From a virus (lineage: Duplodnaviria > Caudoviricetes): a stretch of 54,336 bases of DNA. Location of the stretch: positions 1-54,336 of the IMG/VR virus record IMGVR_UViG_3300017788_000031, one strand, 5' to 3'. Below, in pieces: positions 6,884 through 52,100 of the stretch. Both the position numbers and the translations under genes were made by a program. Positions within the stretch are counted from its first letter, which is position 1. Every line of letters begins with the position of its first letter. The notes under the pieces are model-generated. The model had not been told where the DNA came from. It saw only the letters and a program-made list of their open reading frames with translations, and ran no database searches.

Positions 6884-6913
6884 AAAAAGGGGAGTGTCTT
6901 TGAAGACACTCCC
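6884..6913 (-). terminator. Terminator built on the 16-bp palindrome (copy at 6894-6909)
   Basis: Minus strand reads GGGAGTGTCTTCAAAGACACTCCC-CTTTTT just after the capsid stop. Confidence 0.75.
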
Positions 6914-6927
6914 ACTTTTCAAATTGA

Positions 6928-8346
6928 TTATCCGTAACGGAACAGAACAAAGTTGTTTGCACCCAAGGTACATACAGCACGTTCAGAAAGGAAGTTGACT
7001 TCCATTGCATCGAGGTCGCTTGTAGCAGCACCACCCGCAGAACCTGTAATCCAAGTTTTGTATCTGCGGTCTTCAGCCTCAGATGCACGGTAGCGCACGT
7101 GAAGGAATGGACGCTTAGCATTCTTACCCATAATTTGGTCATACACTGAAGTAGAACCCGCAGGGACAAGAATACCTGTTACAGTACCTGTTGCAGTTGC
7201 AGCGGCAGCACTCAATCCACCGCGCATTGTTGGGTCATTCAAATACTTCCAATCAGACTTATAGAAGTCATAACCTCTGCGGAATCCTGTGAATCCAAGG
7301 TTCAACGCCATATTGATGTCGTTGTCAAAGAGACCGAAGGAAGCAGATTGAGAAACACCTGAGCCGTTAAAGCCGTTAAGCGTAGCCAACATATTGTCAA
7401 TGTCGAAGCTAAGCTGACGGTTAACGAATACTACGTTCTCTTCAATTGCACCTTGACGGTCCAAACGCTGAACAATAGTATCCCACTCGGGAAGAGCGGT
7501 TGGTGTACCACCACCCCATACGTTACCACGAGAGTTTACTACGTAGAAGATACCTTCAGAACCTTTGAAACCTGCGGTTGCAGCACCTGAACCTGCGGCA
7601 GCAGGGATTGCTTCAATCATTGCGGTCTCAAGATAGTCCTCGAAACGAAGACGAGTTTCGTGCTCGCTCTTCAAATACCAAAGATATCCTGTAGCGCCAT
7701 TCTCGGTGGTTACTTCAACCCAACCAATCTGAGCCATATCCGAACCATTCACAGAATACTTATCCTTGATGATGATTGGAGAGTTTGAGAAGATTGAATC
7801 TTCGGCTTCCAATGAACCAACCATTCCGTTAGTTCCTTTACGGAACTCAGAACCATAGATAAATACGCTACAAACAGCAGCAGCAGCGAATGCTTGACCT
7901 GCGGCTTCGTAGTAGGCAACAGTGAATGTTGTTGCGGTTGGAACAGCTGTAACGATTGCTTTGTTGAAAACACCTGTGGTGTTGTCTTGAATCATTACGG
8001 TCTGACCTACGCGAACAGCAACATAAGTAACGCCTGCATCAGCAACAGTAACTGTAGCTGTAGCCGCTCCAAGAGCGCCTGCTGATGTACAGTTGATGTA
8101 CTTGATATGTAGACGGCCTTGTTCTGCCCAACGGATTTGGTCAGAGTTTGAAGGCATCTCTGCTCCTACCATACGGAGGAACGATGCGATTGTACGATTA
8201 CCATAACGCTCAAATTCCTTCTCATAAGTATCAGGAAGATACTGATTCAAGAAATCGAAGTTGGTAATATAGTTTGTGGATAAAGCCACTTGTTCTGCTG
8301 CGGGTTGCAGCGCGTACGTGGGGTTTGCTAAAAGACTACCTGCCAT
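6928..8346 (-). CDS. Major capsid protein
   Basis: 472 aa, after portal and scaffold, followed by a terminator; sequence resembles phi38:1-like capsid proteins (recall). Confidence 0.85.
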   Translation of the reverse strand: MAGSLLANPTYALQPAAEQVALSTNYITNFDFLNQYLPDTYEKEFERYGNRTIASFLRMVGAEMPSNSDQIRWAEQGRLHIKYINCTSAGALGAATATVTVADAGVTYVAVRVGQTVMIQDNTTGVFNKAIVTAVPTATTFTVAYYEAAGQAFAAAAVCSVFIYGSEFRKGTNGMVGSLEAEDSIFSNSPIIIKDKYSVNGSDMAQIGWVEVTTENGATGYLWYLKSEHETRLRFEDYLETAMIEAIPAAAGSGAATAGFKGSEGIFYVVNSRGNVWGGGTPTALPEWDTIVQRLDRQGAIEENVVFVNRQLSFDIDNMLATLNGFNGSGVSQSASFGLFDNDINMALNLGFTGFRRGYDFYKSDWKYLNDPTMRGGLSAAAATATGTVTGILVPAGSTSVYDQIMGKNAKRPFLHVRYRASEAEDRRYKTWITGSAGGAATSDLDAMEVNFLSERAVCTLGANNFVLFRYG

Positions 8347-9522: not shown

Positions 9523-11958
9523 TTATCGAGGCGAAAACTCAGCGAAATCAAACCCATCCAAGCTATCCTCATTAGACTCAAAGTTCAATGGAGGAAGATT
9601 GTTCTTTCTTTGATTAATCAGTTTCGATTGCTGAGTGTTTTGAATACCAATGCGCTTTGCTTTAGCATCCTCTTTGTCTTTCTCACGCTGAGAAAGACTT
9701 GACGTTTCCATAGAGCCAAGCTTCACATTGTAGTCAAACTCCTGAGCCATCAGTTGAGATTTAAGCGCAGCCTCCTGCTTCATCTTTTCAATATCAAAAG
9801 CAATCTCTGCTTGTTTAATTTGCATCTTAGCCTGAGACTCAGCCTGTATCTTTTGCATTGCTACTTGAGCCGCTAACTCCTGAGACTTCAATTGCTGTTG
9901 AGCAATCATCGCCTGCTTCTGCATAGCCATCTTCTCTTCTCGCTGCTCTTTCTTAGTACGCTTTAACTTGAGAAGTTGATTGGCAAGCTTGATGTTCTTT
10001 ATCTCGCGGATGTCAATTGCATCCTCAAGGTTGATGTCACCCTTAGACAATGCCATCTGAATATTCTGCTCAAGCTGAGCCTTCTGCTCTTCATCAGGAG
10101 AAACCTCAATGAAGATTCCAAAGTCATATATGTATAGGTCTGATATGTCTCCAAGTATGGAAACATTGAATCGACCTATCTGATTGATAAACTCCTCTTT
10201 AAAGTCAGCATACTCCAAGATATCAGATATGCGATATGTAATCGCTTCTGCTAATGAGCGGTAGATATTCAATCCGCTCTCAAGGATATGTCGGGTAGCT
10301 GTGTTTGAATTTAACGCTGCCAACTTTTGCAAACCAACCAATGAGTGTGGGTCAGGAGTAGAACCATCACGAGCCTCGTTGAGTCCCGTCACTGTTCTAA
10401 TCATATCCATATAGTGATTGTAGTTGGCAATCAGCATCTGCGTCTTTGCAGCTCCTGAGTTAGACGTGAGTTGGGTAATCGGAACACGAGCGTTATTAAA
10501 GTCGCCATCTTGCGTAAAGCTTCGACCTATAACACTACCTGTTTGGAAATACAATCGAAGTGCATCCTCAGGGTTATATGCGTTACCTGTACCAAGGTCA
10601 ACTTCATTGAGTCCATCGGCATCAATGAATACGCCATCAGGTACAACCCGTGCTATCACCTGCTGTAGTTTAAGGTGAGTAATCTGAATGAGGTCGGCAA
10701 ATGGAATCATTCTACGAACCAATGACTCGATAACCCCCTTATACATACGAGGTGCGCAAGCAAAGTAATTAGGAAGCGCGTGCTGAGATGCAGATTTAGG
10801 TCGAACCATATTCTGAGACAACTCCCATTTTAAAAGGATGTTTGTCCCCATAACCATAATTCCCTCGTACCACACGTCAATTACTTTCTCAATCTTCTCG
10901 AAGTTGCCCTCCTCCATCATCTCAGTTGGAGGATTAAATGTATCGTCCTTCTCTATTATACGTGAGCCACCATTATCAAGTCTCTTCTTTTTATATACAA
11001 TCTTCTTAGTAGTCTTGTAGTTGAAGTACATCAGCGTGCAAGTATCCCTAAAGAACACACTGTTCTCATAAAATCGAGCTACGTTGTAGTAGTCATACCA
11101 TCCTTGACTGTATTGAGAAATCTCCTTTAAGTCTTCAGCGGTTAGAGATTGGTCAATCTTGTACAGCTCGGTAAGAGGCACAGTCTTAATCTCTCCCCAA
11201 TAAAAACAATCCTTGAAGTATGGGTCTTCAGTATAACTGTAGACTATGTTGGCCGGGTCAACATATGAAATCTTAACACCTGCGCCCTGCAAGAACTCGT
11301 GCTTGCAAACAGCTATACCTAATACAGTGCTATCATAGTCAAGTCGCTTGCGCGTATCTTGATAGTGGTTCTCATCAAAGATTGTATTGATTGCCTCTTC
11401 CTCTGCTATCTCAATAGCAGGTTTATAATTAAGCTGCATAAACAATGACAACTCATCATCACTCTCAGGTAACTCATCAGGCTCAACCATAAATGGATTT
11501 GCCCCCGTCAACTCTTGAACTTTCTGAAGCACAGGCTTACCCGCCATTTGAGTCTCGACCATCTCTTGATACTTACTCCTCTTGGATTGAGACATAGCAT
11601 CTTGAGCGTATGCCTTTACCTTAAAGAGTCGGTCAGACATACCATTTACTACGATGTCTACAAATTTTGGTATAACAGGAACAGGTGTCCAATCTAAATT
11701 GAGGTAAGAAAGGTCACCGTCAATAGCTAATTCATTTTTATATTTAGCTGTGCCTTGTTCGCCACGAGCATAAAGACGCAGTCTGTGGAAATCACGCCAT
11801 TGACTATAGTACCTACAAGATGTTCCGTCCTTTCTGAACCACTCATATTGAATGGCCTGTCCGACCTGAAGCCCAAATGCATCTGATTCTTTTTCTGCAT
11901 CAGTAGCAAACTGACTTGGGAAGCTTGTAGATAGTATGTTGATTTCTATATCTTTCAT
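9523..11958 (-). CDS. Portal protein
   Basis: 811 aa, follows terminase; IPKFVDIVVNG motif and a long Q/K/E-rich C-terminal coiled coil (P22-like barrel). Confidence 0.85.
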   Translation of the reverse strand: MKDIEINILSTSFPSQFATDAEKESDAFGLQVGQAIQYEWFRKDGTSCRYYSQWRDFHRLRLYARGEQGTAKYKNELAIDGDLSYLNLDWTPVPVIPKFVDIVVNGMSDRLFKVKAYAQDAMSQSKRSKYQEMVETQMAGKPVLQKVQELTGANPFMVEPDELPESDDELSLFMQLNYKPAIEIAEEEAINTIFDENHYQDTRKRLDYDSTVLGIAVCKHEFLQGAGVKISYVDPANIVYSYTEDPYFKDCFYWGEIKTVPLTELYKIDQSLTAEDLKEISQYSQGWYDYYNVARFYENSVFFRDTCTLMYFNYKTTKKIVYKKKRLDNGGSRIIEKDDTFNPPTEMMEEGNFEKIEKVIDVWYEGIMVMGTNILLKWELSQNMVRPKSASQHALPNYFACAPRMYKGVIESLVRRMIPFADLIQITHLKLQQVIARVVPDGVFIDADGLNEVDLGTGNAYNPEDALRLYFQTGSVIGRSFTQDGDFNNARVPITQLTSNSGAAKTQMLIANYNHYMDMIRTVTGLNEARDGSTPDPHSLVGLQKLAALNSNTATRHILESGLNIYRSLAEAITYRISDILEYADFKEEFINQIGRFNVSILGDISDLYIYDFGIFIEVSPDEEQKAQLEQNIQMALSKGDINLEDAIDIREIKNIKLANQLLKLKRTKKEQREEKMAMQKQAMIAQQQLKSQELAAQVAMQKIQAESQAKMQIKQAEIAFDIEKMKQEAALKSQLMAQEFDYNVKLGSMETSSLSQREKDKEDAKAKRIGIQNTQQSKLINQRKNNLPPLNFESNEDSLDGFDFAEFSPR

Positions 11959-14204
11959 CGAATCAATTGGCTTGTGTTTCCGTCATTCTTGTACCTTGCG
12001 AAGTTAATACTTATTTTGGATTCTTTTTTCTCGGGCATATAAAGATGTTTTTGGTTAGCCATTATAGCTAATCCTGAGCTGATAGATGCGTCAAACTTTG
12101 TTCGGTCATTAATATCAAACTTTGCCCAATCCTCAAGGGTTCTTGTAAATAGCATTGACCCCATTTCTTCGGGGTCTCTATAGCTACCCGTCAAATCCAT
12201 TCCAATGAACTTCTCAATGTATGATTCTATCGCGGCAGCGTGAGCCTGCTTCACGTCCTCAGATGAGTTCGGTATTCCTCCAAGTTCGCGCTCAGTCTTA
12301 GATAGTTTAGCATACTGCTTGTCGGGCCTGTTCATACAGAACCCACGGTATCCTCTATTCTTAAAGTGGTATAATAGGCGAGGCTTGTTGTTTTCTGCCA
12401 AGATAGGCATCCCATAAAACACGCAGGCCATAAGCACCTCCTCAAAAAATATCTCAGCCGTTTGTGGTCGTGCGACATACTCTAAAAAAAATTCATTTGC
12501 CGGGGCTTCATCCATATGGAACTTGGTCATTCCGTGAAGAGAACCGTTTGACCCGCGACCATCTACGACCGCAGAGATATCGTATGAGTCACATCCGAAA
12601 GAACCCATATGCTCATTGCCCGGGTACTTGATTCCATTTCGCAGGTGCACATTGTTTTGCATTTGCTTAGGAGGAACCCAACTGATTGCAAAACGCCCAC
12701 GCTTATCAGGCATAAATATGACCTGCGTATCCTTGATGCCATCCTTCCACATAAAGCTACCGCGAGTTACGTGTTGGTCAATTATCAAGGAGTCATTGTA
12801 GTCAATCTGCTGATAAATCTTAGTTAGGTTAAATAGGGCTTGCTTGCTCTCATCACGGAATGCGTGAGACTCGGTACGTGGGAACTGACGGTAAAATTCA
12901 TTGAGTGCATCTGAGTCGTGCTTTAGTGAATCAACCTCAGCCTCCCAATAATCTATAGCTCCATTAAAAATCCAATTGCCGTCAACTCCTCTGACTTTCT
13001 CTTGAGGCTTTCTAAACACAGGCATACCGTGTATATCAATGAAGCCCTCCATATTCCACTCCATCGGAATGAACAGAGAATACATCCCACTCTTGGTCTG
13101 TCCGTTAGCGTTACGCACACCTATGCGTGAATCCTCATATAGTTTTTTAAAGTTTTCTCCTCCCTTGCTCAAGGCATTTGAGGTAGACCCCATCATACAC
13201 TTCCCAATTATTTTGCTACCCAAACGTAAACACGTCTTGGTTACGCGCCAATTGTTTAGGATGTTGTTTGGCTTTACCCATTTACCCGACTCATCGTGAG
13301 CCAAGAACGCTAACTTCTCACCGTCATAGGAGTTCTCCTCAGTGTTCTTCCAATCTATGGTGGTGTCCAATCCTTCTATCTCTTCAGCTGAGGACTCGTA
13401 CATATTCTTCTTTGTAATCTTGGAAGCAGGAACACGAAACGCCAACTCAGTCTTTGGCTTGTCCATCCCATCCATAATTGGCCTAAAGAAAAACGGCAGT
13501 CTGCTATTAATAGGAACAACCTTATCTGTAAACATCTTCTTGGCATCAGCTCCCGTCTTTGACAGTATACCGACACGTGAGTCACGCGCAAGTGTGCCAA
13601 TATTGACGCACTCAGACGAGGCCATAAAAGAAAATCCCGAGCGCCTAATCTTTAGATATATCATACCGAATGCTCTTGGGTCTGCCTTGCACGCTTCCCA
13701 AAACAAAAAGAAGATTCTGTTAGCCTCACGAAAGTCAGGATATCCCACGTCAATACTTGACCATTGCAGATACATATAGTGAGCACCCGTGATATAGCAG
13801 GGCTTGCCATTATTCATAAACCAAAAGCCATCTTCTCTATGGTCAAACTCTTTTTCAATGTAGTCAACCCATCGGTCTTTAAACTCTTTGGGCTTCTCGT
13901 TCCATTGAAAGATAGACTGAATCTTTGCAAGCTCTTTAGGTAGCTCTCGCCTCTCCCAATATTGTTCCGATGGTTTGAAGTGTCTTTGAAGACACTCTTT
14001 AGGTGTAGCGGGTAAAGCGATATTGAGGCCCGATATATTTATTATCTCACCTATATCTCCCGTCTTAGAGATTACTACAATGTCGTGCTTTTCGTCATAA
14101 CCGTACGCCCAACTCTTTGCCTTGTTCTTTTTTGAAAGAGTGGCTGTTGGTATAAGGTCACGTACTAAAAAGTACAACGAGTTATTTAGACCTTCGTTCT
14201 GCAA
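11955..14204 (-). CDS. terL: Terminase large subunit
   Basis: Walker A-like KIRRSGFS, Walker B LAHDESGK, coupling motif GSTS, nuclease-domain FGCDSYD. Confidence 0.9.
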   Translation of the reverse strand: MQNEGLNNSLYFLVRDLIPTATLSKKNKAKSWAYGYDEKHDIVVISKTGDIGEIINISGLNIALPATPKECLQRHFKPSEQYWERRELPKELAKIQSIFQWNEKPKEFKDRWVDYIEKEFDHREDGFWFMNNGKPCYITGAHYMYLQWSSIDVGYPDFREANRIFFLFWEACKADPRAFGMIYLKIRRSGFSFMASSECVNIGTLARDSRVGILSKTGADAKKMFTDKVVPINSRLPFFFRPIMDGMDKPKTELAFRVPASKITKKNMYESSAEEIEGLDTTIDWKNTEENSYDGEKLAFLAHDESGKWVKPNNILNNWRVTKTCLRLGSKIIGKCMMGSTSNALSKGGENFKKLYEDSRIGVRNANGQTKSGMYSLFIPMEWNMEGFIDIHGMPVFRKPQEKVRGVDGNWIFNGAIDYWEAEVDSLKHDSDALNEFYRQFPRTESHAFRDESKQALFNLTKIYQQIDYNDSLIIDQHVTRGSFMWKDGIKDTQVIFMPDKRGRFAISWVPPKQMQNNVHLRNGIKYPGNEHMGSFGCDSYDISAVVDGRGSNGSLHGMTKFHMDEAPANEFFLEYVARPQTAEIFFEEVLMACVFYGMPILAENNKPRLLYHFKNRGYRGFCMNRPDKQYAKLSKTERELGGIPNSSEDVKQAHAAAIESYIEKFIGMDLTGSYRDPEEMGSMLFTRTLEDWAKFDINDRTKFDASISSGLAIMANQKHLYMPEKKESKISINFARYKNDGNTSQLIR
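13980..13995. repeat. 16-bp palindrome copy inside terL
   Basis: GTGTCTTTGAAGACAC. Confidence 0.95.
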
Positions 14205-19860: not shown

Positions 19861-20199
19861 TTAATTTATTTTGGAAACTTTTCTACCCATACCTACGCGC
19901 ATCTTCTCAGCTTTCTTCGATGCTAATTGAGATGGAGATATCTCAGACTTTGTCTTTGGTGTCTTTGAAGACACTCTTGTTGTAGGTCTGCAATATTCAT
20001 TCTTGCCACCCGCGCCACAAGCTTTACCTGTACGTGTGTCAACCCATTTCTCCTTCTCCCATCTCTTCAAAGATGTGCCCTCCGAACTCTTACGTACCGT
20101 ACCCGATTCCTTCCTACACTTTGCAATAGCCTGTGATGCTCTTGCCGATGGGAAGACATCATACTGCGCTTTTACTTTTTTGTAGCAAGCATCTTTCAT
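19861..20199 (-). CDS. Basic hypothetical protein
   Basis: 112 aa, K/R-rich; SLKRWEKEKWVD...YCRP. Confidence 0.75.
   Translation of the reverse strand: MKDACYKKVKAQYDVFPSARASQAIAKCRKESGTVRKSSEGTSLKRWEKEKWVDTRTGKACGAGGKNEYCRPTTRVSSKTPKTKSEISPSQLASKKAEKMRVGMGRKVSKIN
19959..19974. repeat. 16-bp palindrome copy inside CDS
   Basis: GTGTCTTTGAAGACAC. Confidence 0.95.
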
Positions 20200-25084: not shown

Positions 25085-25390
25085 CGTAGGGGTTCGGGGT
25101 AACCCCCCACGGCACGCTCGCCACCCCCCTCGCGGAAGTGCCCCTCGAGCAAGGGGGTGGGGGTCGGTTTTGGTCGCCCCCTGTGGACGTTTTTGGCTTT
25201 TTGCCCTGCGCCACCTGCACCCCCATAGCCCCCTGCCCGACAGGCAGTGCACCGATATAGGTGCACCGCCCTGCACCCGTCACCGCGTCCCCCTGTCACC
25301 CCCTCCGCCCCCCTCCGTCCCCCTGTGGAGTGTCTTCAAAGACACGGCAGGAGCGGTGAGAGATGGGGCTACACCCCTGCACCCCCCGTC
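25085..25390. other. GC-rich non-coding divergence region with G/C tracts; candidate genome end or packaging site
   Basis: Many C4-C6 runs; transcription diverges from here. Confidence 0.5.
25330..25345. repeat. 16-bp palindrome copy
   Basis: GTGTCTTCAAAGACAC. Confidence 0.95.
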
Positions 25391-25548: not shown

Positions 25549-26202
25549 ATGAGTAACTTATTAGCAATCGAGGAGGCTTTCCTCAACAACCCACAGGTAA
25601 AAGCAGGTATGAACCTACAGGAACTGACGGCACTGCAACGTGCAATGGGCAAGACTGAAAAGAAGTCGTTTGAGCAGTCGTTACAGCTCTCAACCATAGC
25701 CGCCAAGGCTTGGCAGTGGGTTAACAGCGAAGAGGGCAAAGCCCTGTGCGAAGAAGAGGGCGTGACGTTCACCAAAGAGGCATTGGGAGAGAAAGTGTTC
25801 AACCGCAAAAAGTCGTTTTTCTGCAAGTTGGTAAAGGCAGGTGAGCTGAGCACAGAGGTGGTTGATACGTTCAACGCCAAGTGCGATGAGGCTGAGAGAG
25901 CAGGTGAGAAGCCTGTGCGCAGTATTGAAAGCCTTTTGAAGTTTGCCAAGGCGGTGGAAAGTGGAACAGAGAGCGGTGGACAAGGCGAAGAGGGTGAGGG
26001 TGAGGGTGGCGAAGAGGCCGCAATTGAGGTACGTACAGAGACCCTGTTCACATTCACTTTCAAAAACCCCGAAGGGGCAAACGTAGCAGTGCGCATCGAC
26101 TCTGAGGGCAACGTGAAGAGCACCAACAGCCGCGAAGAGGTGTTGGAGGCCGTACGCCTGTTCACTACCAAGTACAAGTACGCAAACAACGCAAACGCAT
26201 AA
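25549..26202 (+). CDS. Early hypothetical protein
   Basis: 217 aa with an A-rich leader and an acidic Gly/Glu linker. Confidence 0.8.
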   Translation: MSNLLAIEEAFLNNPQVKAGMNLQELTALQRAMGKTEKKSFEQSLQLSTIAAKAWQWVNSEEGKALCEEEGVTFTKEALGEKVFNRKKSFFCKLVKAGELSTEVVDTFNAKCDEAERAGEKPVRSIESLLKFAKAVESGTESGGQGEEGEGEGGEEAAIEVRTETLFTFTFKNPEGANVAVRIDSEGNVKSTNSREEVLEAVRLFTTKYKYANNANA

Positions 26203-26213: not shown

Positions 26214-26239
26214 GGGTGGTGTCTTCAAAGACACTGCCC
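26214..26239 (+). repeat. Palindrome hairpin (core 26219-26234) without a ribozyme
   Basis: GGGTG-GTGTCTTCAAAGACAC-TGCCC; the extension uses G-U pairs on the plus strand. Confidence 0.9.
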
Positions 26240-27192: not shown

Positions 27193-27208
27193 GTGTCTTC
27201 AAAGACAC
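27193..27208. repeat. 16-bp palindrome ahead of hammerhead 1
   Basis: GTGTCTTCAAAGACAC. Confidence 0.95.
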
Positions 27209-27213
27209 CGCCC

Positions 27214-27267
27214 TCCTGTCCACAGGTAGTTGCCTGTGCTGATGAGTCCACGAAGGACGAAACAGGA
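27214..27267 (+). ncRNA. Type III hammerhead ribozyme 1; predicted cut after GUC at 27220
   Basis: TCCTGT-C, stem I CACAGG/CCTGTG, CTGATGA, stem II GTCC-ACGAA-GGAC, GAAA, CAGGA. Confidence 0.95.
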
Positions 27268-27285
27268 ACACAAATACAATTTAAT

Positions 27286-28687: not shown

Positions 28688-28703
28688 GTGTCTTTAAAGA
28701 CAC
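28688..28703. repeat. 16-bp perfect palindrome ahead of hammerhead 2
   Basis: GTGTCTTTAAAGACAC. Confidence 0.95.
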
Positions 28704-28705
28704 TC

Positions 28706-28754
28706 CCGTAGTAGGATGAGTGTCCTACCTGATGAGACCAAAAGGTCGAAACGG
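28706..28754 (+). ncRNA. Type III hammerhead ribozyme 2; predicted cut after GUA at 28710
   Basis: CCGT-A, GTAGGA-TGAGTG-TCCTAC, CTGATGA, GACC-AAAA-GGTC, GAAA, CGG. Confidence 0.95.
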
Positions 28755-28776
28755 AAATCAAATTAAATCTAATCAA

Positions 28777-30359: not shown

Positions 30360-30375
30360 GTGTCTTCAAAGACAC
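30360..30375. repeat. 16-bp palindrome ahead of hammerhead 3
   Basis: GTGTCTTCAAAGACAC with GGGGTG/TGCCCC extension. Confidence 0.95.
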
Positions 30376-30379
30376 TGCC

Positions 30380-30428
30380 CCGTATCGAGATGAGTGTCTC
30401 GACTGATGATTCCAAAAGGATGAAACGG
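30380..30428 (+). ncRNA. Type III hammerhead ribozyme 3; predicted cut after GUA at 30384
   Basis: CCGT-A, TCGAGA-TGAGTG-TCTCGA, CTGATGA, T-TCC-AAAA-GGA-T, GAAA, CGG. Confidence 0.9.
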
Positions 30429-30450
30429 AAACTCTAACACATTTAATTTT

Positions 30451-33126: not shown

Positions 33127-33142
33127 GTGTCTTCAAAGACAC
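33127..33142. repeat. 16-bp palindrome ahead of hammerhead 4
   Basis: GTGTCTTCAAAGACAC with GGGG/TCCC extension. Confidence 0.95.
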
Positions 33143-33146
33143 TCCC

Positions 33147-33195
33147 CCGTATTGGGGTGTGTGCCCCAACTGATGATTCCGAAAGGATGAAACGG
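33147..33195 (+). ncRNA. Type III hammerhead ribozyme 4; predicted cut after GUA at 33151
   Basis: CCGT-A, TTGGGG-TGTGTG-CCCCAA, CTGATGA, T-TCC-GAAA-GGA-T, GAAA, CGG. Confidence 0.9.
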
Positions 33196-33219
33196 AAATC
33201 TAATTAAATCTAATTCACA

Positions 33220-35977: not shown

Positions 35978-35993
35978 GTGTCTTCAAAGACAT
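35978..35993. repeat. Palindrome copy with one change
   Basis: GTGTCTTCAAAGACAT. Confidence 0.9.
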
Positions 35994-35995
35994 CC

Positions 35996-39349: not shown

Positions 39350-40830
39350 AAGAGGATATCATTGAGCGCGTATCAGGAACAAGCAACCTGTATATGTGGA
39401 AAGAGTGTGAACTTATGAAGAAGGTGGTGTTAGCAACTAAGCAGGTGAAGGAAGGCAGAGGCAAGCAGGTAAAGATTGTTGAGCTTCCTAAATACAAGAC
39501 GGACAAAGCAATCATAGAGCGAATTATCAGGAGCTGTGAGTACTACAAGAATCTACACGAGCAGGACTTAGCATCGGGCAGTGCGTTTAACTTCAGGTCT
39601 TATCAGAAAGAGATAATCTTAAAGGGGAATGTTATCCTATCCAAGCATAGGTTTCTTTATCTTGCAATGGAGGTGCGCACGGGCAAGACACTAACAAGCC
39701 TTGGCATAGCTCAGAAGATGAATGCTAACAACGTGCTGTTTATAACAAAGAAGAAAGCCATAGCCTCCATACAGGATGACTATGCGTCTCTTAGTCCAAG
39801 GTACAACTTGCACGTCATCAACTATGAGAGCCTGCACACAATTGACAAGTTGATTAAATGGGACTTGATTATCTGTGACGAGGCTCATAGTATGGGTGCA
39901 TTCCCAAAGCCAAGCCAACGTGCGCTGATGGTGAAAGACCTGATTAAAAAGAACAAGTCAATGGTGATACTTCTATCGGGCACACCGACTCCTGAGTCAT
40001 ACTCTCAGATGTATCATCAGGTGTATGGCATACCGGGGAATCCGTTCGCTGAGTTTACAAACTTCTACAGGTTCTGCGACAAGTATGTAAAGGTTCGTGA
40101 GAAGCGCATCAATGGATTGGTGATAAAGGATTACTCAAAAGGTAGCGAGTCAATCATTGAGGCAATGAAGCCATACACCATCAACTACACGCAAGCTGAG
40201 GCAGGGTTTATTACCACAACAACTGAGGAGATACTTGAGGTTGAGATGAGGCAGTCAACATACTCATTGGCTAACAGACTTAAAAAGCAGTTGGTCGTTG
40301 AGGGTAGGGACGAGGTGATATTGGCTGACACTCCTGTAAAGCTGATGATGAAACTGCATCAGATATATTCAGGCACGGTCAAGTTTGAGAGTGGCAACTC
40401 AATGGTGATTGATACGAGCAAGGCTGAGTTCATTAAGAAAAAGTTCAAGGGTAATAAGATTGGAATCTTCTACAAGTTCAAGGAAGAACTCAATGCGCTC
40501 AAGCAAGTATTCGGTGATGACTTGACTACGGAGCTGAGTGTCTTTGAAGACACAGATAAAAGCATCGCGCTTCAGATTGTGTCGGGGCGTGAGGGCATCT
40601 CGTTGAAGCAAGCAAAGTATTTGGTGTATTACAACATTGACTTCAGCGCAACAAGTTATTGGCAGAGCAAGGATAGAATGACCACGAAGGACAGACCTGA
40701 GAACAATGTCTTTTGGGTGTTCACCAAGGGCGGCATTGAGCACGACATTTACAAGGCGGTTACTAAAAAGAAAGATTATACAGTTACACATTTTAAAAAA
40801 ACAATTGCAAATGAAACTACCGATGTTTGA
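39346..40830 (+). CDS. Superfamily 2 (SNF2-like) helicase
   Basis: MEVRTGKT, IICDEAH, LSGTP, GREGISL, QSKDR. Confidence 0.9.
   Translation: MKEDIIERVSGTSNLYMWKECELMKKVVLATKQVKEGRGKQVKIVELPKYKTDKAIIERIIRSCEYYKNLHEQDLASGSAFNFRSYQKEIILKGNVILSKHRFLYLAMEVRTGKTLTSLGIAQKMNANNVLFITKKKAIASIQDDYASLSPRYNLHVINYESLHTIDKLIKWDLIICDEAHSMGAFPKPSQRALMVKDLIKKNKSMVILLSGTPTPESYSQMYHQVYGIPGNPFAEFTNFYRFCDKYVKVREKRINGLVIKDYSKGSESIIEAMKPYTINYTQAEAGFITTTTEEILEVEMRQSTYSLANRLKKQLVVEGRDEVILADTPVKLMMKLHQIYSGTVKFESGNSMVIDTSKAEFIKKKFKGNKIGIFYKFKEELNALKQVFGDDLTTELSVFEDTDKSIALQIVSGREGISLKQAKYLVYYNIDFSATSYWQSKDRMTTKDRPENNVFWVFTKGGIEHDIYKAVTKKKDYTVTHFKKTIANETTDV
40538..40553. repeat. 16-bp palindrome copy inside the helicase gene
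   Basis: GTGTCTTTGAAGACAC. Confidence 0.95.
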
Positions 40831-41044: not shown

Positions 41045-41047
41045 GCA

Positions 41048-41789: not shown

Positions 41790-42038
41790 ATGATAGAGCA
41801 ACAGATACAGAGCAAGAAGATAAAACAACTTGAGTCGGAAGGATACTACGTCATCAAGTTGATTAACACCAACAAGAATGGAATCCCTGACCTGATAGCT
41901 ATACCCAAGAACGCGGACGTGTTGTTCGTTGAGGTGAAGAGACCAAACGGAAAGCTATCAAAGCTACAGGAGTTCAGGCTAAAAGAACTAACAGCACACG
42001 GACTAAGAACGGAAGTCTATAAAGGAGAAGAAGAATGA
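41790..42038 (+). CDS. VRR-NUC family nuclease (resolvase-like)
   Basis: GIPDLI...FVEVKRPNGKLSKLQ. Confidence 0.9.
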   Translation: MIEQQIQSKKIKQLESEGYYVIKLINTNKNGIPDLIAIPKNADVLFVEVKRPNGKLSKLQEFRLKELTAHGLRTEVYKGEEE

Positions 42039-42562: not shown

Positions 42563-42574
42563 AAACTATATGAA

Positions 42575-42763
42575 ATGGCGTTTGACGAAGAAAACAAAAG
42601 AGCGGAGCGGATAGCGTTCCGTATGATGGAGTATCACTCAGTGATGAACAACGTATACGACAACTTGGTGGACAGGAACTTCAAGACTGTGGAAACAGAT
42701 ATCAAGTTCCTCATAATGGAAATGAAACTGATACTAAAATCAATACCCGATGACGACTTTTGA
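42575..42763 (+). CDS. Hypothetical protein
   Basis: 62 aa, in operon. Confidence 0.6.
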   Translation: MAFDEENKRAERIAFRMMEYHSVMNNVYDNLVDRNFKTVETDIKFLIMEMKLILKSIPDDDF

Positions 42764-43136
42764 AACAGAAGAAGAACTCCGAAAGCAAAAGAAATCCATA
42801 GAGGTTTTCGTAAATACTTTCGGTGGCTCATATAAAAAACTTGACACGTCCGATGTGGACTACAAGGTCTTTGACAAAGACGGCAAACTCATAGCATATG
42901 CCGAGGTAAGCAGTAGACCACGCACACTAAGGGATGCGTACCCGCTACCAATACCCGCAAAGAAAATCATCAAGCTAATAGACAAGCGAATCACGCCTGT
43001 TGTTATATGGCACTGCGATGATGGCATCATCTACGGCACAGCGGATAAACTTGTTGGCCTTGCAATGGTTGACAAGGATGAGATGCAACTCATCTATGAG
43101 AAGCAGAGCAAGCTCAAGTACATCCGCTTTGTCTGA
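42750..43136 (+). CDS. PD-(D/E)XK-fold-like protein, possibly degenerate
   Basis: VDY...YAEVSSR resembles D...ExK with the Lys missing. Confidence 0.45.
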   Translation: MTTFETEEELRKQKKSIEVFVNTFGGSYKKLDTSDVDYKVFDKDGKLIAYAEVSSRPRTLRDAYPLPIPAKKIIKLIDKRITPVVIWHCDDGIIYGTADKLVGLAMVDKDEMQLIYEKQSKLKYIRFV

Positions 43137-46100: not shown

Positions 46101-49100
46101 CCGCTTGTACTTCTGCATCAACTTGGCATCATCCTCGGTGATAACATCCTCCTCCTGCATCTGAGCAAGTGTGGCTGCATAGTCCAACTTGCCATCATCA
46201 TCAAATACCTTGTCGGCATAATTCTCAAATCGGATAGCCAACTCCTCAGCCAATGACACCTCCTCATCCACAGCGGTCAGTATCTCATCAGCGGTAGCGA
46301 TGACGTTTGTTACCTCATCAAGTTTCAACACCGTTGCTTTCTCGCCAAACATCTCAACGAGTGACAGGTACTTATCCAACACCGCATCAGGGATGAGGTT
46401 TGGGTTGATGGCAAACAACTGCTCAAGCAGAGGAGCCGCTGCCTCGGAGATACCAATCTTAGTGCGGATGTTTTTCTTAGCAGTTGAAAGGAGTCTGCGT
46501 GCGCGTTCAATCTTTTCAGCGTAGTTGGCATCCTCAAATACCTTGGTCATATAGTCAACGAACTTGTCTATTGACTCTTCGTTGAACATATTCACGTTGG
46601 CAAATCTTCTCAGGATAGAAGCCACTTGCTTGGTGTTTACCTTCCCTGACAATCGCTGTTCTGCAATCTCAGCCGTGAGTTCTCTGTTGGCTGCTCTCCA
46701 AGCGGCAACCGCTGTGCGTGCGCCTCTTGCCAAGCTCTTTATCTGTTGCTTGAGCAGTTCCTTCTCGCTGAGTGTAATGTTCTTGATGTCCTTGATAGTT
46801 CCAAGCAAGCGACCAACTGATGGTGCTGACTTGATTCTCTTACCGAACTCAGTCTGTACATTACGAACCAACTGCTCGCGCTGCGTGTCATTGGCTCTCT
46901 CGTAAACCGCTGAGGTTTGCAAGTAGTCCATCACGCCTTTCATAATGCGCTCGTTGGATGCGCCACGTCTCTTGGTTCTCTCGATGATAGCGTTCACCTC
47001 CTCAAGCATACGGTCATATCCGGGGATGGTGTTGACATTCTCTTCGAGTCTGCCTGCCCCCAAGTTTATACGCTGAGACTTTACAATTCTTTCTTTTGGA
47101 ACTACGTATTCATAATGATACTGCCACGTGGCTTTAGAATTTTCCCTATCTCCTACTACTTTTGCTAATCCTTTTCTCTCTAAAGACCTCCACAAAGCCT
47201 CAGCAGCATCTGAACGAGTGGTATCTGAAATTAATTTTTTTCCATATTTGTTCTGTAGTTCTTCAGCCAATAAGCCATATGCTCTTGTGCCTATTCCCTT
47301 CCCTTGGTTTTTGTCTTGAGATAAAATGACATTGCCTTTAAATTTATTAGGAAATATTTTCTCTAAAACTTTTAACACAAGTTCAATCAGAGAGTCTAAT
47401 TCAGTTTTGTTTTTAACTCCCGGGAACAAACCTGATATGGCTATTTTTAAATCATCTCCTCTTGAATCTAATTGTATATATCCAAGCGTCTTTCCTTCAA
47501 ACAATATATCATAATGTTTCCAAGGTGCACTTCTGCTTTCATTTTGTTTTACCTCTATACGGTTTAAGTCTACTGTCAACTTTTTACCATTGCGATAAAA
47601 AGTTATTTTATTCTCAAGACCTGTCTTACCTGATATTTGAGGTTTTACTCTGAACGGATTCACGAAGCGGCCATTGCCATCAACGATGAATACGCCACCG
47701 CCTCTACCTTGCTCGTCCACTCTTGCTCGTCTTGTTGAGTAGCCGAGCGGCTCAAGTTCCTTTCTCATTGCTGAGTCATTCACCTGCTTGGGAGCAAAGC
47801 CTTGGTTGTTGACGTTATAACGCTGAGCAACCTTCTTCACCTGCTCAAATCCTGTGTTGCCTGACTTCTGAAACTTGACGTAGATGTCAGTGTCACCAAA
47901 CTCTTTCTTGGCTTTCTTGCTCTTCTCGTATATCTCTCTGAACTCAGGGTCAGTAAGACTCTTGCTTGAGCGTGAGGTAAGCATATCAACACCACCGAAT
48001 GTACCACCGTCAGTGTGCAATGGCATACCATCTTTGTATCCCCAATTCGCAATTCTTATAAAGTCAGGCCATAGCACATCATAGTTTATGATGTCTTGTA
48101 GTCCATACTTCATAAGTACGTCCTGCAACTGTGAGCGATGGTTATCAAAATCTCTCTGACTAAATCCTTGCAGGTCGCTAATCATATCAGCTGCACGTGC
48201 CTCACCGATTTGGTCACCATCTTCATTGTAGGTTGGAACCATATCATTGGCACGTAGCGGGTTTGCTTTTTCAGTTACGACATAGTTGAGGCCACGCTCA
48301 AATACTTTCGGGATTACATTGTTGTATGCATCACCTTCATAGATGTTCTGCTCAAGGCCACGCGCAGTCTTGGCAACCTTTAGAACCTTGCCGTCACCCA
48401 AGTCAAAGACAACGCGGTCACTGCCTGAGCCTATCTTTTTTAATCTGTAGATGTTGAAACGCTCACGTGCTACCTTGTCGGTATCGTATTGGAATCCGAT
48501 GTTTGCATCCTCCTCCGTTCTGAACAGCGATGTCCCTTCAGATGCGACCTGACTCTTTACTCTTGGCTTTCCCTGCTTTGGTTTTTCGATTGTTTCGGTG
48601 ACTCTTTTAAGCGCTTCTTTATTAGTCCCGCTAACTGACTCCCCAACTGTGGTATCTGTTTCTCCGACACTTCGTTGAGCACGTTCTCTTCCTCTTGATA
48701 AGGCTTGATTGATTGCTGTTTCATTTACTCCAAGTTTTGTGGCAAGTTTTTTTGCCGCGTTAAAATAATCAGGTGCTGACTCTGAGGTGTATCCTTCAGA
48801 TGCTTCCTCAAAAGTTTGACCTCCCTTAAATGATTCGTATAATATCTTCTCAGGATACCAAAGCACGGCCTGTAAGTCAGCCATTGTGATGTCTATGTTG
48901 TTCTCTTTTTTTAATCTGCGAGCAACATCAGTAAACACATCACGGATAAACTTTCTTTCGTTACCATTAGCAGGCGCTTCTTTCTCCCCTGATATATTTT
49001 TTGATAAAGAGTTGCCTGCCTTTCTTAATTCATCGGTATTAGGGTTAGAGGCAAGCACTTCTCTTTTTTTGGTATCCATACTTACCTTCTCAATAGTTTT

Positions 49101-52100
49101 GGCAAGGTCAGCAGGGGATACTCCACTTAGTTTTGGAACCACTGACTTCAGTATTGCAAGAGCTTCGGGGTCAGACTTGATAGCATCTAACGCATTAGAC
49201 ACTCTCTTTTTACCTTCATTAATTGCGGCCTTGTCTGTTTTTAAAAGAGTACCCGTAAGTCTACCCCACGTGCGCATAAACCATCTATCCATTGTCAGTT
49301 GGTCAAACTGCCCCCACAGATTCATATAAAATCCATTTCCGATTTTTGGTCCGAGTATAACCGCTCCGTAAACCATCTCATCGGCCAACTCTCCTGACGC
49401 AAGATTCTTTACCTTGCCGTCAATCTTTACCTTCAAATCACCTGCTCGGTATTTTGATGTAAGGAATGTATTTATATCGGACATTGTTAGTCCATTATCC
49501 AACAAAGAGTTTATGAGCAGTATAGATTTCTTTATCCCCGACTGCTGTAATCCAAAGCCCCCGTTAGGATTAAACCTTCCGTTCTTTTTGAAATAGTCAT
49601 ATTGTTTTTCAGCAAGGTCAAAGTTGAAATCAACCAAGTTGCCATTTGACATTACAGCCAATGGCAAGATGAAAGAACCTCTCGCTTCTTTATCAGTTGC
49701 TATCTCAGGATGGATTGCAGAGATGACATCTAAAGCTGAGCGAGTCTTCTCATCGTACCAACCAATAGCTTCGGGATGTTCTTCAATTGCTTTTACCGCT
49801 TCAGCTGTTATGATGTCTGATAGATACTTCTTAGTTAACGCATCATTCTTTGAAGGGTTAAATGCTTTGCCATACTTCTTCTTTAGTTCAGGGATATAAG
49901 AGGTAAACAAATCCTGTACAGCTTTTTTGAACTGTATCTTGTTATCAAAAGATGACTTGCTTGCAAATCCTTTTACATTATCAAAGTATACAGGATTATT
50001 TTCAAACCCCGTCTTGCCTGCTTGTTGAAATTTTATACTTGGATTAGCGTTATCAAAGGTCGTGTTACTGCCATCGGCAAGTTTGATTTGTTTTGAATCA
50101 AATACTACAATTTCATTTAACTGTTTTCCGGGAAGATAAGATATTAAACCATCAATTTTATTTTTGACAAGTAGATTGTAGTTTTCTTCTGTTAGTCTAT
50201 TTGAAAAAATTATCTTGCCGTCAACACTAAAGTCAACTCCATTGTCGTTCACTAAGGGGTTTAACGATTTTAAGAAAACTTCATAGACTTCTCCGTTTGC
50301 GTCAGCGTATTCTTTTGCTGCTTGATATCCTCCAAAATAAAATCCCTTTTTTGTATGAGAAAATCTCTTTATTGATTCGTCAAATCGGTCAAACCTTTTG
50401 TTTTCAAACTCGGTCCATTTTTTATTTTCATCAAATCTATATGTATACTTTGGACTTCCGTGATACACAACCAATGGCTCGCCATTCTCGTCAACAACCT
50501 TACTTGCATTTTTGGGGTCGTTTTCCCAATCTCCAAACCACGCCTTAAATTCGGGTGTCCGAACTAATTTATATTGCTCGGCAGTCAAATTGCTTGGCTT
50601 TCCATTAGGAGCAAACCCCGTCTTGCCTGCTACCTGCGGCTTAACCCTCGGTCCTCCCTCGCCTTGACGCTGCTCTTCATTTCTGAAAAAGTCAGCGATG
50701 CTCTCACCGCGTGACATACGGTCGGAGATGGCTACCATAAAGTCAAGCACATCCTCAGGGGTAGCATCCTCCAAGAATATAGGCTGACCCGTAATGCGCT
50801 TAGCAAACTCGTTGAACAAGTCCTTCAGTTGCTGAAGTAGTGTTCGGTTGTTAATACTACGAGGGTCAAGACCTGAAGCCGTGAGATAAGCACCGAGCTG
50901 AACCATCCACTCCTCAGCTTGTGTATCTGATTGTTTATATCCTTCGCTATCTACAAAGTCATCTAACTGACGAACCACATCGTCATATCCATTGTCAAGG
51001 AGAATCTGACGCACACGTCCTTGAAACTCTTTGAACAATTGAGGGTTGTCACCAAATGCCTTGAAGAATATTCCGTGCCACGCCTCGTGTGGAAGTGTGG
51101 TCGCGTCTGCTGACCCATCATTTACAAGAATAGCAACAGGCTTATTTGATTGGTCATATATAATTACACCTGCATCTCCGCTGCCAAAAACTTTAGACAC
51201 TTCATTGCCAAACTCGCGCTCAGCATATGCTTTCATCTCTGCGAGGTTCTTATGGTTGGTCACCTTTATCTCAGGCATAACCGACATAAGAGACTGAATG
51301 GTGTTTTTGAATATGCCTGCCTTGGTGGTTGCCCTCTCGGGTCGTGCCTGTTGCTCAGCCTCCTGCTCAAGCTGTGTCTTTAAAGACACTTGAACAGCGT
51401 CAACCGCACTAAGCTGTGCAGGTGTACGCTCAGCCTCAGGTGTAGCCATCGCCTGATGATACAGGTCAGATAGCATCTGCTCATTCCCCATCACAGGTGT
51501 CTCCGTCCCATCCTCCTGCATAAAGGTGATGTTTGTCTTCTCCTCAGATGGCAGTTCGTTGAGCGCAGTGGTTGTTGTCTCAGGTGTTGATAGGATAGTT
51601 GCCTGCTGAGTTGGAGCCGGGGCAACAGCGGGAGTGGCGAGAGTTGTTATCTCATTAAGAATCTCTGCCTGCCTCTTTGCTAAATCTGTTTGCTCCCATC
51701 TTTTTTGTAGCTCATCATTTAACTCTTGCTCAGTATTAAAAAACTCTACAGTATTAGTTACTTCATCAAGAATACCATCAGTGCCTACCTTGCTTCTTTC
51801 TTCAAAATTACTTCTCTCTTGAGTGAGTTGATTATACTCAGACATCAAGGTCTCTATCTCAGTAGCTTTATCAGGGTCAACCTGTATCTCATTGCCTGTT
51901 GGGAGAGTGACGGTACGTGTGCGAGTGGCTGCCTTATCAGATAGCGCTTCCAACTCTGTGTTGATGTCATTGATTCGGTTACGCTGTCTGCGTGTAAGCG
52001 CCTCATCCTTGCCGCTAATCTGTTGCTCCAAGTCACGCTTCTCCTTGAGCAGGTTCATCGCTTCCTTCTTCTCATTGGTGTCAAGGTTCTCAGGCAATGA

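Follow-up and report, generated by a model that had tools for sequence, protein, structure and literature searches.

What reads a 16-bp palindrome that recurs about a dozen times in one phage genome, between genes as well as inside them? We addressed this question in IMG/VR record IMGVR_UViG_3300017788_000031, a Bacteroidota-type Caudoviricetes phage whose 54,336 nt are henceforth referred to as the window.

A selected palindrome dispersed over the phage genome

A motif scan for GTGTCTTNNAAGACAC (GTGTCTT-NN-AAGACAC) gave 11 exact matches in the window (Table 1) and none in 100 dinucleotide-preserving shuffles (mean 0.00). Allowing up to two mismatches added the copy at 35978, whose last base is T, and brought the total to 12 (shuffles: mean 0.29, maximum 2). 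The 12 copies and coordinates of the original prediction were therefore recovered as 11 exact matches and one with a single mismatch, with about zero expected. As it had also claimed, four copies lie within long ORFs in the frames given, the centre is limited to CA, TG or TA in this genome, and copies are densest at 25.3-36 kb, the beginning of the plus-strand early region. The palindrome is a real, selected signal and not a product of chance.

Across relatives, the centres of 168 copies (72 CA, 65 TG, 17 TA, 8 CG, 6 other) were nearly always a pyrimidine-purine step, and the self-complementary centres TA and CG fell below the frequency expected from independent half-sites. The conserved core is GTGTC-N6-GACAC, which takes the form GTGTCTT-YR-AAGACAC in this genome. 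The copies fall into two structural classes, extended hairpins and bare 16-mers without stem extension, the latter being the majority. The mean stem extension was 0.48 bp in 107 early copies not linked to a hammerhead ribozyme versus 4.28 bp in 43 hammerhead-linked copies, and bare copies fold weakly (-5 to -9 kcal/mol). Most copies are thus not strong hairpins.

Table 1. Palindrome copies and associated features in the window
Feature	Coordinates	Strand	Details
Intrinsic terminator after capsid-like gene 6928-8346	6882..6921	-	Palindrome 6894-6909 is the tip; GGGA/TCCC flanks, then T-run
Bare copy in terL (gene 11955-14204, minus)	13980..13995	.	Codons 70-75, ECLQRH
Bare copy in ORF 19861-20199 (minus)	19959..19974	.	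Phase 0, VSSKT; frame from coordinates
Copy in GC-rich divergent junction	25330..25345	.	About 200 nt upstream of first early gene
Candidate reader, first early gene	25549..26202	+	217 aa
Intergenic copy with stem extension GGGTG/TGCCC	26219..26234	+	25 nt ahead of next start codon; -18.0 kcal/mol, z -5.6
Palindrome 27193-27208 in extended hairpin, then type III hammerhead	27193..27270	+	Predicted cut after 27220
Palindrome 28688-28703, then type III hammerhead	28688..28757	+	Predicted cut after 28710; 37.1 bits (Rfam)
Palindrome 30360-30375, then type III hammerhead	30360..30431	+	Predicted cut after 30384; 29.6 bits (Rfam)
Palindrome 33127-33142, then type III hammerhead	33127..33198	+	Predicted cut after 33151; 29.8 bits (Rfam)
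One-mismatch copy immediately after tRNA-like element	35978..35993	+	Last base T
Bare copy in SNF2-type helicase gene (39346-40830)	40538..40553	.	Codons 398-403, SVFEDT
Bare copy in 3717-aa polyvalent-protein gene (43137-54290, minus)	51374..51389	.	Phase 0, VSLKT; frame from coordinates

The motif is all-or-none among related phages

In IMG/VR, the motif characterises a large group of podophages of ~60 kb, with 11-15 copies of GTGTC-N6-GACAC in each complete genome; of 118 IMG/VR stretches retrieved through the motif, 105 align to the window. Four whole relatives had 11-15 copies each versus none of a reversed control, and no copy occurred anywhere in the genome in five records without the motif, of which four are complete or about 100% complete. 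Presence of the motif per genome is all-or-none, distant late genes included, and its state is mosaic relative to a primase tree, on which it requires 9 changes; well-supported branches force at least 7 of these.

Some genomes carry a form of their own. MW202828.1 has no canonical copy, yet holds 14 copies of its own perfect palindrome, with all 16 positions identical in 14 of 14 and with flanks that are partly shared. The variant of locus L226 is GTCTCTT..AAGAGAC. Overall, the two outer half-sites of 5 bp stay constant; variation lies in the 6-bp spacer, between genomes and, in locus L240, between copies. As judged from these alignments, variants switch genome-wide.

We also searched bacterial chromosomes. 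The motif occurred as a single copy in 4 of 401 Flavobacteriaceae genomes, all with non-YR centres (reversed control, 5), which is no enrichment. Among the matches listed from a scan of 185,579 species genomes, we found single copies in unrelated phyla, compatible with chance, and no arrays; the sole exception was one MAG whose 8 copies all lie on the same contig, which at 56 kb has the size of a phage genome. A host protein, one of the binders originally put forward, is unlikely given the Flavobacteriaceae result and this contig.

Copies inside terL and the helicase gene are held at synonymous sites

The original prediction had proposed synonymous-site conservation as a check on the coding copies, and those in terL and the helicase gene show it. 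The terL copy is present in 27 of 76 distinct relatives. Among the 27 sequences with the peptide CLQRH, the codons were TGT (27), CTT (26), CAA (27), AGA (27) and CAC (27); Gln73 was CAA in all 27, compared with 17 CAG and 10 CAA at Gln81. The peptide around the site is highly variable, with 31 different pentapeptides among motif-free sequences.

The helicase copy is exact in 35 of 75 relatives, and 8 more retain GTGTC-N6-GACAC. The site is kept in 23 of the 25 genomes that have both the system and the VFED peptide, with GTC in 24, TTT in 23 and GAA in 22 of these 25; the two motif-free genomes with VFED use GTA/GTG and TTC instead. L226 has its own variant at this position, and two amino acids are altered along with the site.

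The copy at 19959 was found at the same position in 14 loci, a set biased by having been chosen by the motif. None of the 168 copies from motif-selected loci mapped to the position of the copy at 51374, which lies in a giant protein that matches ART-PolyVal and PHROGs of unknown function.

Codons at the terL and helicase sites align without gaps across relatives; on this comparison, substitutions rather than insertions created the coding copies, which were then held at synonymous sites. The palindrome is under sequence-specific selection that includes synonymous sites in terL and the helicase gene and leaves neighbouring codons free.

Extended copies form tips of a terminator and of hairpins before hammerheads

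The post-capsid copy is part of a strongly folding terminator (-23.3 kcal/mol, z -9.1). A hairpin and T-run were present in every readable relative, with the exact palindrome as the tip in 14 of 30 and unrelated hairpins in another 14. Only this copy combines a GC-rich stem with a following U-run. Of 150 early-region copies in relatives, no more than 5 have a run of four or more T within 20 nt; taken as a class, the motif is therefore not a terminator.

Four further copies precede type III hammerheads (Table 1) with the CUGANGA and GAAA core, a cleavage triplet, three stems and an open stem III. Their Rfam scores (37.1, 29.8 and 29.6 bits, with the hammerhead at 27193 unlisted) lie below the RF00008 gathering score of 48.5. 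A pattern scan found 66 hammerheads on the sense strand and 0 on the other; compensatory changes occurred in 12 of 14 pairs, although the scan demanded minimal stems and pairing is therefore partly built in. A hairpin stood ahead of 62 of 62 hammerheads found, and 46 of these hairpins carried the family palindrome; in relatives, unrelated hairpins also stand in front of hammerheads at the same places. The proposal that intergenic copies are reused as RNA hairpins thus holds for the terminator and for the hairpins preceding hammerheads.

A candidate reader encoded by the first early gene

Motif sites bracket gene 25549-26202 in every genome examined. In the window, promoter-like -7 boxes lie at 25415 and 25481 in the divergent junction, and relatives have their junction copy placed likewise upstream of the first early gene. 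A profile of the encoded protein matched all five whole records that bear the motif (E 1e-32 to 6e-93) and none of ten motif-free relatives. Part of the link between gene and motif may come from their being physically linked in an exchangeable block of the early region; two further early genes, 26260-27177 and 32053-33117, likewise lean to motif-bearing genomes.

The protein consists of a helical N-domain, in which lysines are invariant, followed by an acidic linker and a small C-domain. It had no match in Pfam, PHROGs or PDB sequences, and Foldseek against the PDB (best E 0.31 for the whole protein, 1.1 for the N-domain) returned no recognisable DNA-binding family or fold. Its homodimer model scored 0.44 versus 0.00 for the best control. 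This level was attained by 20 of 30 proteins whose solved structure is a pair of one chain and by 1 of 23 whose structure is a single chain, counts that are rough because our own alignment was used. At least 79% of contacts agreed between runs, with partner pLDDT of at least 74. This predicted homodimer is the best candidate reader. Together with the dyad symmetry of the motif, it takes the dimeric binder of the original prediction as far as plausible.

The specific binders suggested earlier did not follow the motif. ORF 21795, which had been called a wHTH protein, is a core gene: all five motif-bearing and all five motif-free whole relatives have it, so it does not track the motif. ORF 27473, called RHH-like, had no relative among 80 primase-anchored loci at the thresholds used and cannot serve a family-wide motif. 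A ParB-type Pfam family, expected for the parS-like site also suggested, was absent from the 72 ORFs scanned.

What reads the palindrome

We tentatively favour, with a confidence a little short of an even chance, a site recognised for its sequence and not merely as a hairpin, with a phage factor acting probably on duplex DNA to control transcription. A phage-encoded protein would read the palindrome at about a dozen places per genome. This reader may be the homodimer of the first early protein, its own gene flanked by sites, and binding would most likely take place on duplex DNA, with genome-wide control of transcription as the presumed effect. The architecture of half-sites and spacer, as seen in the alignments, fits a dimer on DNA. 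Because the site is self-complementary, it fits at no cost at the tips of RNA hairpins that are needed in any case; these would be the post-capsid terminator and the hairpins left at the end of the upstream RNA by hammerhead cleavage. In places that lack such a hairpin, the site would be written into coding sequence.

A fuller version of this account is possible but doubtful as a whole. In it, a fast-evolving, first-made homodimer of unassigned fold in lytic-type Bacteroidota phages would bind 11-15 dyad sites in hairpin tips and coding sequence, the same 16 bases would be both a DNA site and the tip of RNA-processing hairpins beside hammerheads, and the whole system (protein and all sites) would be repeatedly gained, lost or swapped among close relatives.

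The strongest alternative, unlikely but a serious contender, is an RNA hairpin (6-bp stem GUGUCU/AGACAC, 4-nt loop) recognised by an RNA-binding protein or a nuclease of the phage that would regulate early mRNAs globally, comparable to T4 RegA or to lambda N with boxB. Such a protein would govern translation, stability or read-through of adjacent cistrons. Copies do stand behind stop codons and 15-40 nt ahead of start codons, the site is the tip of a true terminator and of most hairpins before hammerheads, and co-occurrence with gene 25549-26202 applies equally here. The sense strand prefers CA on both genome arms, some genomes have GNRA loops (GUAA and GUGA in L240), and the copy at 35978 retains a G.U pair in sense RNA; the CA preference and the GNRA loops are strand-specific traits, which are not expected of a symmetric DNA site. 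The scarcity of self-complementary centres also counts against the favoured account. However, the orientation bias is pronounced only in the hammerhead class (30 CA, 4 TA, 0 TG on the sense strand) and modest in the bare class (27 CA vs 13 TG flank clusters), whose folding is weak. Changes at positions 6 and 11 ignore RNA wobble pairing, giving C.A in 9 copies and U.G in 7 in sense RNA. The stem sequence is conserved and the loop variable, which is unusual for hairpin-binding proteins, and a role at terL codon 70 or helicase codon 398 is hard to see.

We consider it improbable that there is no trans-acting reader and that the copies are cis hairpins in mobile regulatory cassettes, spread and homogenised by intergenic recombination like the PeSL cassettes reported for T4-type phages. 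The palindrome-plus-hammerhead units at 28682, 30356 and 33123 are indeed paralogous modules, 62-81% alike over 93 nt. Cassette copying is also compatible with the identical copies and shared flanks of MW202828.1, two of which have 21 nt of flank in common. A Sak annealing protein and an exonuclease are among the products of the phage, and the mosaic state of the motif on the primase tree fits as well. Against this stand the gap-free coding copies, made by substitution and held at synonymous sites, the helicase copy that changes with the variant of its genome, the bare copies without hairpin extension and the all-or-none distribution that reaches distant late genes.

There is only a slight chance that the palindrome acts as a hairpin in single-stranded DNA, as a lagging-strand priming or initiation signal or as an N4-type promoter. 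Should replication begin near 25 kb, in the divergent junction, the lagging-strand template of either arm would be the sense strand, which would fit the orientation bias, and the phage has its own primase-helicase. However, the ten largest ORFs include no RNA polymerase family, host-type -7 boxes occur in the early region at places other than the palindrome copies, and the link to terminators and hammerheads is left unexplained.

It is scarcely credible that the palindrome serves a host protein, in the manner of parS, matS or Noc sites, or imitates a host CRISPR repeat: it resembles parS and matS in size and symmetry, but the matches listed from bacterial genomes are at chance level outside the phage-sized contig, and its variants are genome-specific. 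Repeat mimicry by RNA anti-CRISPRs has precedent (PMC10651486); the listed genome matches included no arrays.

If the favoured account of a phage protein reading a DNA site is true, an entire phage genome is controlled or organised through a single short site and a single small protein, and an abundant, uncultured group of freshwater and marine phages offers a testable site-protein pair. The synonymous constraint in terL and the helicase gene is a ready-made assay, and the all-or-none motif among near-identical relatives provides natural knock-outs for comparison. The palindrome shows a nucleic-acid signal layered on coding sequence and RNA structure at once, and the hairpin paired with every hammerhead gives a concrete model for trimming of phage early transcripts.

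Comparison with known systems

Palindromes of 13-16 bp in about ten or more dispersed copies, tolerated in coding sequence, are known from parS/ParB and matS/MatP. Our palindrome is alike in size, dispersed copy number and presence within coding sequence, whereas its sites are phage-specific and densest between early genes, and the Pfam scans showed no ParB-like family. The PeSL of T4-type phages are repeated promoter/stem-loop cassettes between small early genes in a variable region. Repeated stem-loop cassettes between small early genes are found here too, but no promoter is attached to the palindrome and it is not confined to intergenic junctions, given the copies within ORFs and their synonymous constraint. 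In the early genes of T7, intercistronic RNase III processing hairpins leave a 3' stem-loop on the upstream mRNA. Hairpins between cistrons that leave such a stem-loop upstream are a shared trait, but bare copies have only 6-7 bp and any cutting here would be done by hammerheads.

Several hammerheads between genes of one phage were described by Perreault et al. 2011 and proposed to cut long transcripts into gene-length mRNAs (PMC3088659). The arrangement here is similar in number and placement but adds a hairpin before each hammerhead, often with the palindrome, a pairing not mentioned in the parts of that paper we drew on.

In cluster A mycobacteriophages (L5 gp71; the TipsytheTRex repressor), which are temperate, one protein has more than 20 sites genome-wide in promoter regions and short intergenic spaces; these stoperators are asymmetric 13-mers, bound by a monomer and strictly oriented with transcription, and their specificities are lineage-specific (PMC9283540). 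By analogy, the network proposed here would be akin to this operator/stoperator system, except that its site is symmetric and its reader would be dimeric. Both have a short site repeated many times over the genome (12 copies here, 11-15 in four relatives). The site here differs in being a 16-bp dyad with some intragenic copies, in a phage for which Pfam scans found no integrase-like family, and its binder is a candidate. Stoperator-like asymmetry is confined to the 2-nt centre, with a weak bias in bare copies (27 CA vs 13 TG clusters). The putative counterpart of the stoperator repressor, which acts against initiation or elongation from its sites, is the co-occurring first early gene with its predicted homodimer.

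Palindrome copies and genome layout

The palindrome GTGTCTTNNAAGACAC occurs in 11 exact copies in the window, at positions 6894, 13980, 19959, 25330, 26219, 27193, 28688, 30360, 33127, 40538 and 51374. A further copy at 35978 was found when mismatches were allowed (its last base is T). The original prediction of a 16-bp palindrome scattered across the genome is thus borne out: the total of 12 copies compares with 0.29 expected, and 100 dinucleotide-preserving shuffles of the window contained no exact match. The IMG/VR virus record of the window has an estimated completeness of ~90%. Its closest named relative is MW202828.1 (terL 82% identical); Flavobacterium and Cellulophaga podophages are further off. 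Most of the length of the polyvalent protein is matched solely by PHROGs of unknown function.

Features of the window discussed in the text
Feature	Position	Strand	Remarks
Late genes	1-24375	-	Include capsid-like protein, portal, terL and GroEL
Capsid-like protein	6928-8346	-	
terL	11955-14204	-	
Stretch related to 36458-36596 (about 140-180 nt)	24415-24552		Divergent junction
Early genes	about 25000-43136	+	Include primase and SNF2-type helicase
Candidate reader gene	25549-26202	+	First early gene, 217 aa
Type III hammerheads	27209-27270, 28703-28757, 30377-30431, 33144-33198	+	Between early genes, each directly behind a palindrome hairpin
Promoter-like 55-nt cassette, 3 copies	27836-27890, 29625-29679, 31954-32008	+	
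Glutamine-amidotransferase-like region fused to gamma-glutamyl cyclotransferase (GGACT) domain	32053-33117	+	
ORFs matching the DnaA C-terminal HTH family	34177-34479, 42035-42562	+	Placed only via homology to MW202828.1 genes annotated dnaA-like
tRNA-like element	about 35920-35972	+	Acceptor-like stem, GGTTCGAGTCC T-arm
Stretch related to 24415-24552 (about 140-180 nt)	36458-36596		Just upstream of primase
Primase	36591-39017	+	
SNF2-type helicase	39346-40830	+	
Polyvalent protein, 3717 aa	43137-54290	-	ART-PolyVal ADP-ribosyltransferase domain at residues 1267-1412

Distribution in relatives and hosts

A motif scan of IMG/VR returned at least 118 stretches, and 105 of those listed align to the window at ~65-83% identity. 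The listed stretches hold 168 motif copies, 113 of them inside alignable sequence, at a handful of window positions. Among the matches listed, these are the post-capsid site (38), terL (38), 19959 (14), the helicase (6) and early intergenic sites (17); none of the matches listed from these motif-selected stretches mapped to 51374. Because stretches picked by the motif itself are a biased set, we assembled two further sets that avoid this bias, each of 80 loci, with terL as the anchor of one and the primase as that of the other. The conserved core of the motif, GTGTC-N6-GACAC, is present in 11-15 copies in each of four whole relatives, and the reversed control in none. No equivalent repeat was detected when motif-free relatives were searched for one.

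Four of 401 Flavobacteriaceae genomes contain the motif, in one copy each and all with non-YR centres; the control gave 5. The species-genome scan, for which about 2,200 chance matches were calculated in 596 Gb, returned single matches in unrelated phyla among the matches listed. The exception among these was a Cytophagales MAG, with all 8 copies on one 56-kb contig of phage-genome size. Judged by these scans, the motif is not in use on host chromosomes. None of the papers listed by our literature search on palindromes and hammerheads in Cellulophaga and Flavobacterium phages concerns this phage group.

Selection on coding copies

The terL copy, which runs from the third base of codon 70 through codon 75, is present in 27 of 76 distinct relatives. 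In these 27 sequences, CLQRH is encoded by TGT (27), CTT (26), CAA (27), AGA (27) and CAC (27), and the preceding codon ends in G in all of them, though the residue is K, E or Q. Nearby codons in the same sequences are mixed: Gln81 is CAG in 17 and CAA in 10, Glu80 is GAG in 14 and GAA in 12, and Pro65 uses four codons. The TerL protein is weakly constrained at this position, since 31 distinct pentapeptides occur there in sequences without the motif.

The helicase copy is exact in 35 of 75 relatives, with the 5-N6-5 core kept in 8 more. Among the 25 genomes with both the motif system in the early region and the VFED peptide, 23 keep the helicase site; the VFED codons in these 25 genes are GTC (24), TTT (23), GAA (22) and GAC (25), and Leu, Thr, Ile and Ala codons next to the motif vary freely. 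Only two motif-free genomes encode VFED in the helicase, both with GTA or GTG and with TTC. The original prediction had made its case depend on conservation of coding copies in relatives, and in terL and the helicase the codon choice was indeed held. By these sequence comparisons, the palindrome is real, family-wide and selected directly at the nucleotide level.

Hairpins, hammerheads and neighboring elements

A purpose-written structural scan, run over both strands of the window and of the 80 loci anchored on the primase, detected 66 type III hammerheads, every one on the sense strand; 62 are non-redundant. All 62 have a hairpin upstream that ends a few bases short of the cleavage triplet: the exact palindrome in 35, a GTGTC..GACAC variant in 11 and, in 16, an unrelated GC-rich hairpin that in some cases has a UUCG loop. 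Stems I-III were recovered by RNAalifold with compensatory changes in 12 of 14 pairs, a pairing support that is partly built in because the scan required minimal stems. Rfam listed three of the four window hammerheads, all below the gathering threshold (37.1, 29.8 and 29.6 bits vs 48.5). That several hammerheads can flank phage genes is already known (PMC3088659).

The post-capsid site has a hairpin and a T-run in every relative with readable sequence (30), and the tip is the exact palindrome in 14, a variant in 2 and an unrelated hairpin in 14. Because relatives carry unrelated hairpins at such places, any hairpin suffices where one is needed, with the palindrome as one option for its tip. 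Hammerhead-linked copies have a mean stem extension of 4.28 extra pairs (n = 43); for the remaining 107 early-region copies it is 0.48, not above chance. The majority of copies are bare 16-mers, and their folding is weak (-5 to -9 kcal/mol).

Host-type -7 boxes (the Bacteroidetes-type consensus is TAnnTTTG) lie at 25415, 25481, 27868, 29657, 31986 and 34150. The palindrome-plus-hammerhead units are placed between these boxes, and because further genes follow downstream before the next box, we argue for RNA processing rather than termination. The tRNA-like element was called by neither ARAGORN nor Rfam. T-arm minihelices like its own adjoin palindromes in relatives, hinting at a further RNA-processing signal. 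Each 55-nt cassette combines TTGACA with a TAnnTTTG box and with a second inverted repeat of the GACATTG..CAATGTC type, and the three look like a separate operator system. The two related stretches both contain a CT-rich run and repeated GACAT words and may be origins or regulated promoters.

Motif variants

MW202828.1 has no canonical copies, even when one mismatch is allowed. It carries 14 identical copies of another perfect palindrome with the outer half-sites unchanged, all in the early region, mostly 3-6 nt past a stop codon and 17-35 nt ahead of the next start, and all without stem extensions or T-runs. Among other relatives, locus L226 has GTCTCTT..AAGAGAC between genes and also at the corresponding place in the helicase gene, where Leu-Glu replaces Val-Asp, and loci L268 and L192 have GTGTCCT..AGGACAC forms. 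Across genomes, the inner six bases vary and the outer GTGTC/GACAC is constant; in locus L240, the inner six differ from copy to copy and include GTAA and GTGA. Palindrome centers include known 6-bp restriction sites.

DNA site or RNA hairpin

The explanation that best fits the palindrome is a site for a phage-encoded, sequence-specific, probably dimeric factor, and we rate a DNA site above an RNA hairpin, though not by much. Functional RNA hairpins carry the motif at their tips, GNRA loops occur in one lineage, and the sense strand favors CA (83 CA, 16 TG, 15 TA and 1 CG in 115 exact early copies), a trend also seen on the opposite genome arm at the capsid site; all of this would suit recognition as RNA. 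However, the bias of bare copies shrinks to 27 CA, 13 TG and 5 TA clusters after flank grouping, strong CA bias is confined to one paralogous hammerhead family, and the supporting stem is absent from bare and coding copies. Substitutions at positions 6 and 11 yield C.A in the sense RNA no less often than U.G (9 and 7 copies). The conserved part consists of two 5-bp half-sites separated by one helical turn; the spacer between them is AT-rich and its center is a pyrimidine-purine step, an arrangement that is the usual shape of a dimer's operator.

Two promoter readings were rejected. The TG-centered strand agrees in 7 of 8 positions with the -7 box of Bacteroidetes, but we dropped this idea because that strand is antisense in most copies and better -7 boxes lie elsewhere. 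The flank of one relative's palindrome resembles an SP6-type promoter, a likeness absent from the other copies, and no phage RNA polymerase was found among the ten largest ORFs.

A candidate reader of the palindrome

Gene-presence comparison in the primase-anchored loci singled out the first early genes; the terL-anchored loci were too thin to use, with just 14 long enough. A profile of the first early gene product, our candidate reader, matched all 5 motif-bearing whole records (MW202828.1 among them) and 0 of 10 motif-free relatives. GTGTC-N6-GACAC is absent genome-wide from five motif-free records (four complete or about 100% complete), and a sixth carries a single copy. Sites bracket the gene in all genomes examined: the first lies upstream, in the promoter region, and the second immediately 3' of the gene. 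The ORF at 21795-22241, which the original prediction called a wHTH and named among its candidate binders, does not track the motif: it occurs in all 5 motif-bearing and all 5 motif-free whole relatives. The DnaA C-terminal HTH family matched 2 of 52 small ORFs scanned, and relatives of both occur in motif-bearing and motif-free loci. Two further early genes co-occur with the motif, 26260-27177 and the GGACT fusion gene; the fusion gene is found in all 19 motif-rich loci and in 4 of the 10 without the motif (two of these four only 27-28% identical).

On a primase tree of 45 rows, whose 12 "negative" rows include two loci with GTCTC-type-stem repeats (L226 and L263), explaining the motif state takes 9 changes, and well-supported branches force at least 7 of these. 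Motif-free locus L252, for example, stands beside L249 (7 copies upstream of the primase) and L256 (5). Because motif state changes repeatedly, the gene-motif association is not simple shared ancestry. Exchange of early-region blocks could transport the gene and its sites jointly. Primases are near-identical between L249/L256 and L252, and between L215/L216 and L229, where the motif system is completely different and the helicase alleles differ too; these contrasts show strong mosaicism in the phage group.

The candidate reader had no match in Pfam, PHROGs or PDB sequences (phmmer against PDB), and a protein atlas yielded no more than unnamed viral clusters plus weak leads to DUF3102/DUF6192. 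It is fast-evolving (42-56% identity where primases are at least 80% identical) and has a helical N-domain with invariant lysines. AlphaFold models were confident, with pLDDT 82.5 for the whole protein and 89.3 for the N-domain, and Foldseek of the models against PDB returned nothing at E ≤ 0.001. The homodimer model scored 0.44, compared with 0.00 for the best control, with at least 79% contact agreement between runs and a partner pLDDT of at least 74. Of proteins solved as one-chain pairs, 20 of 30 reached that score, as did 1 of 23 solved as single chains; these counts are only rough because our own alignment was used. We infer protein binding, the identity of the reader and the choice of DNA over RNA from these patterns.

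Comparison with known systems

Among known systems, the operator/stoperator network of cluster A mycobacteriophages comes closest (PMC9283540). Asymmetry is a defining trait of the sites in that family; the palindrome differs from them in being symmetric, in having coding copies and in doubling at the tips of RNA hairpins.
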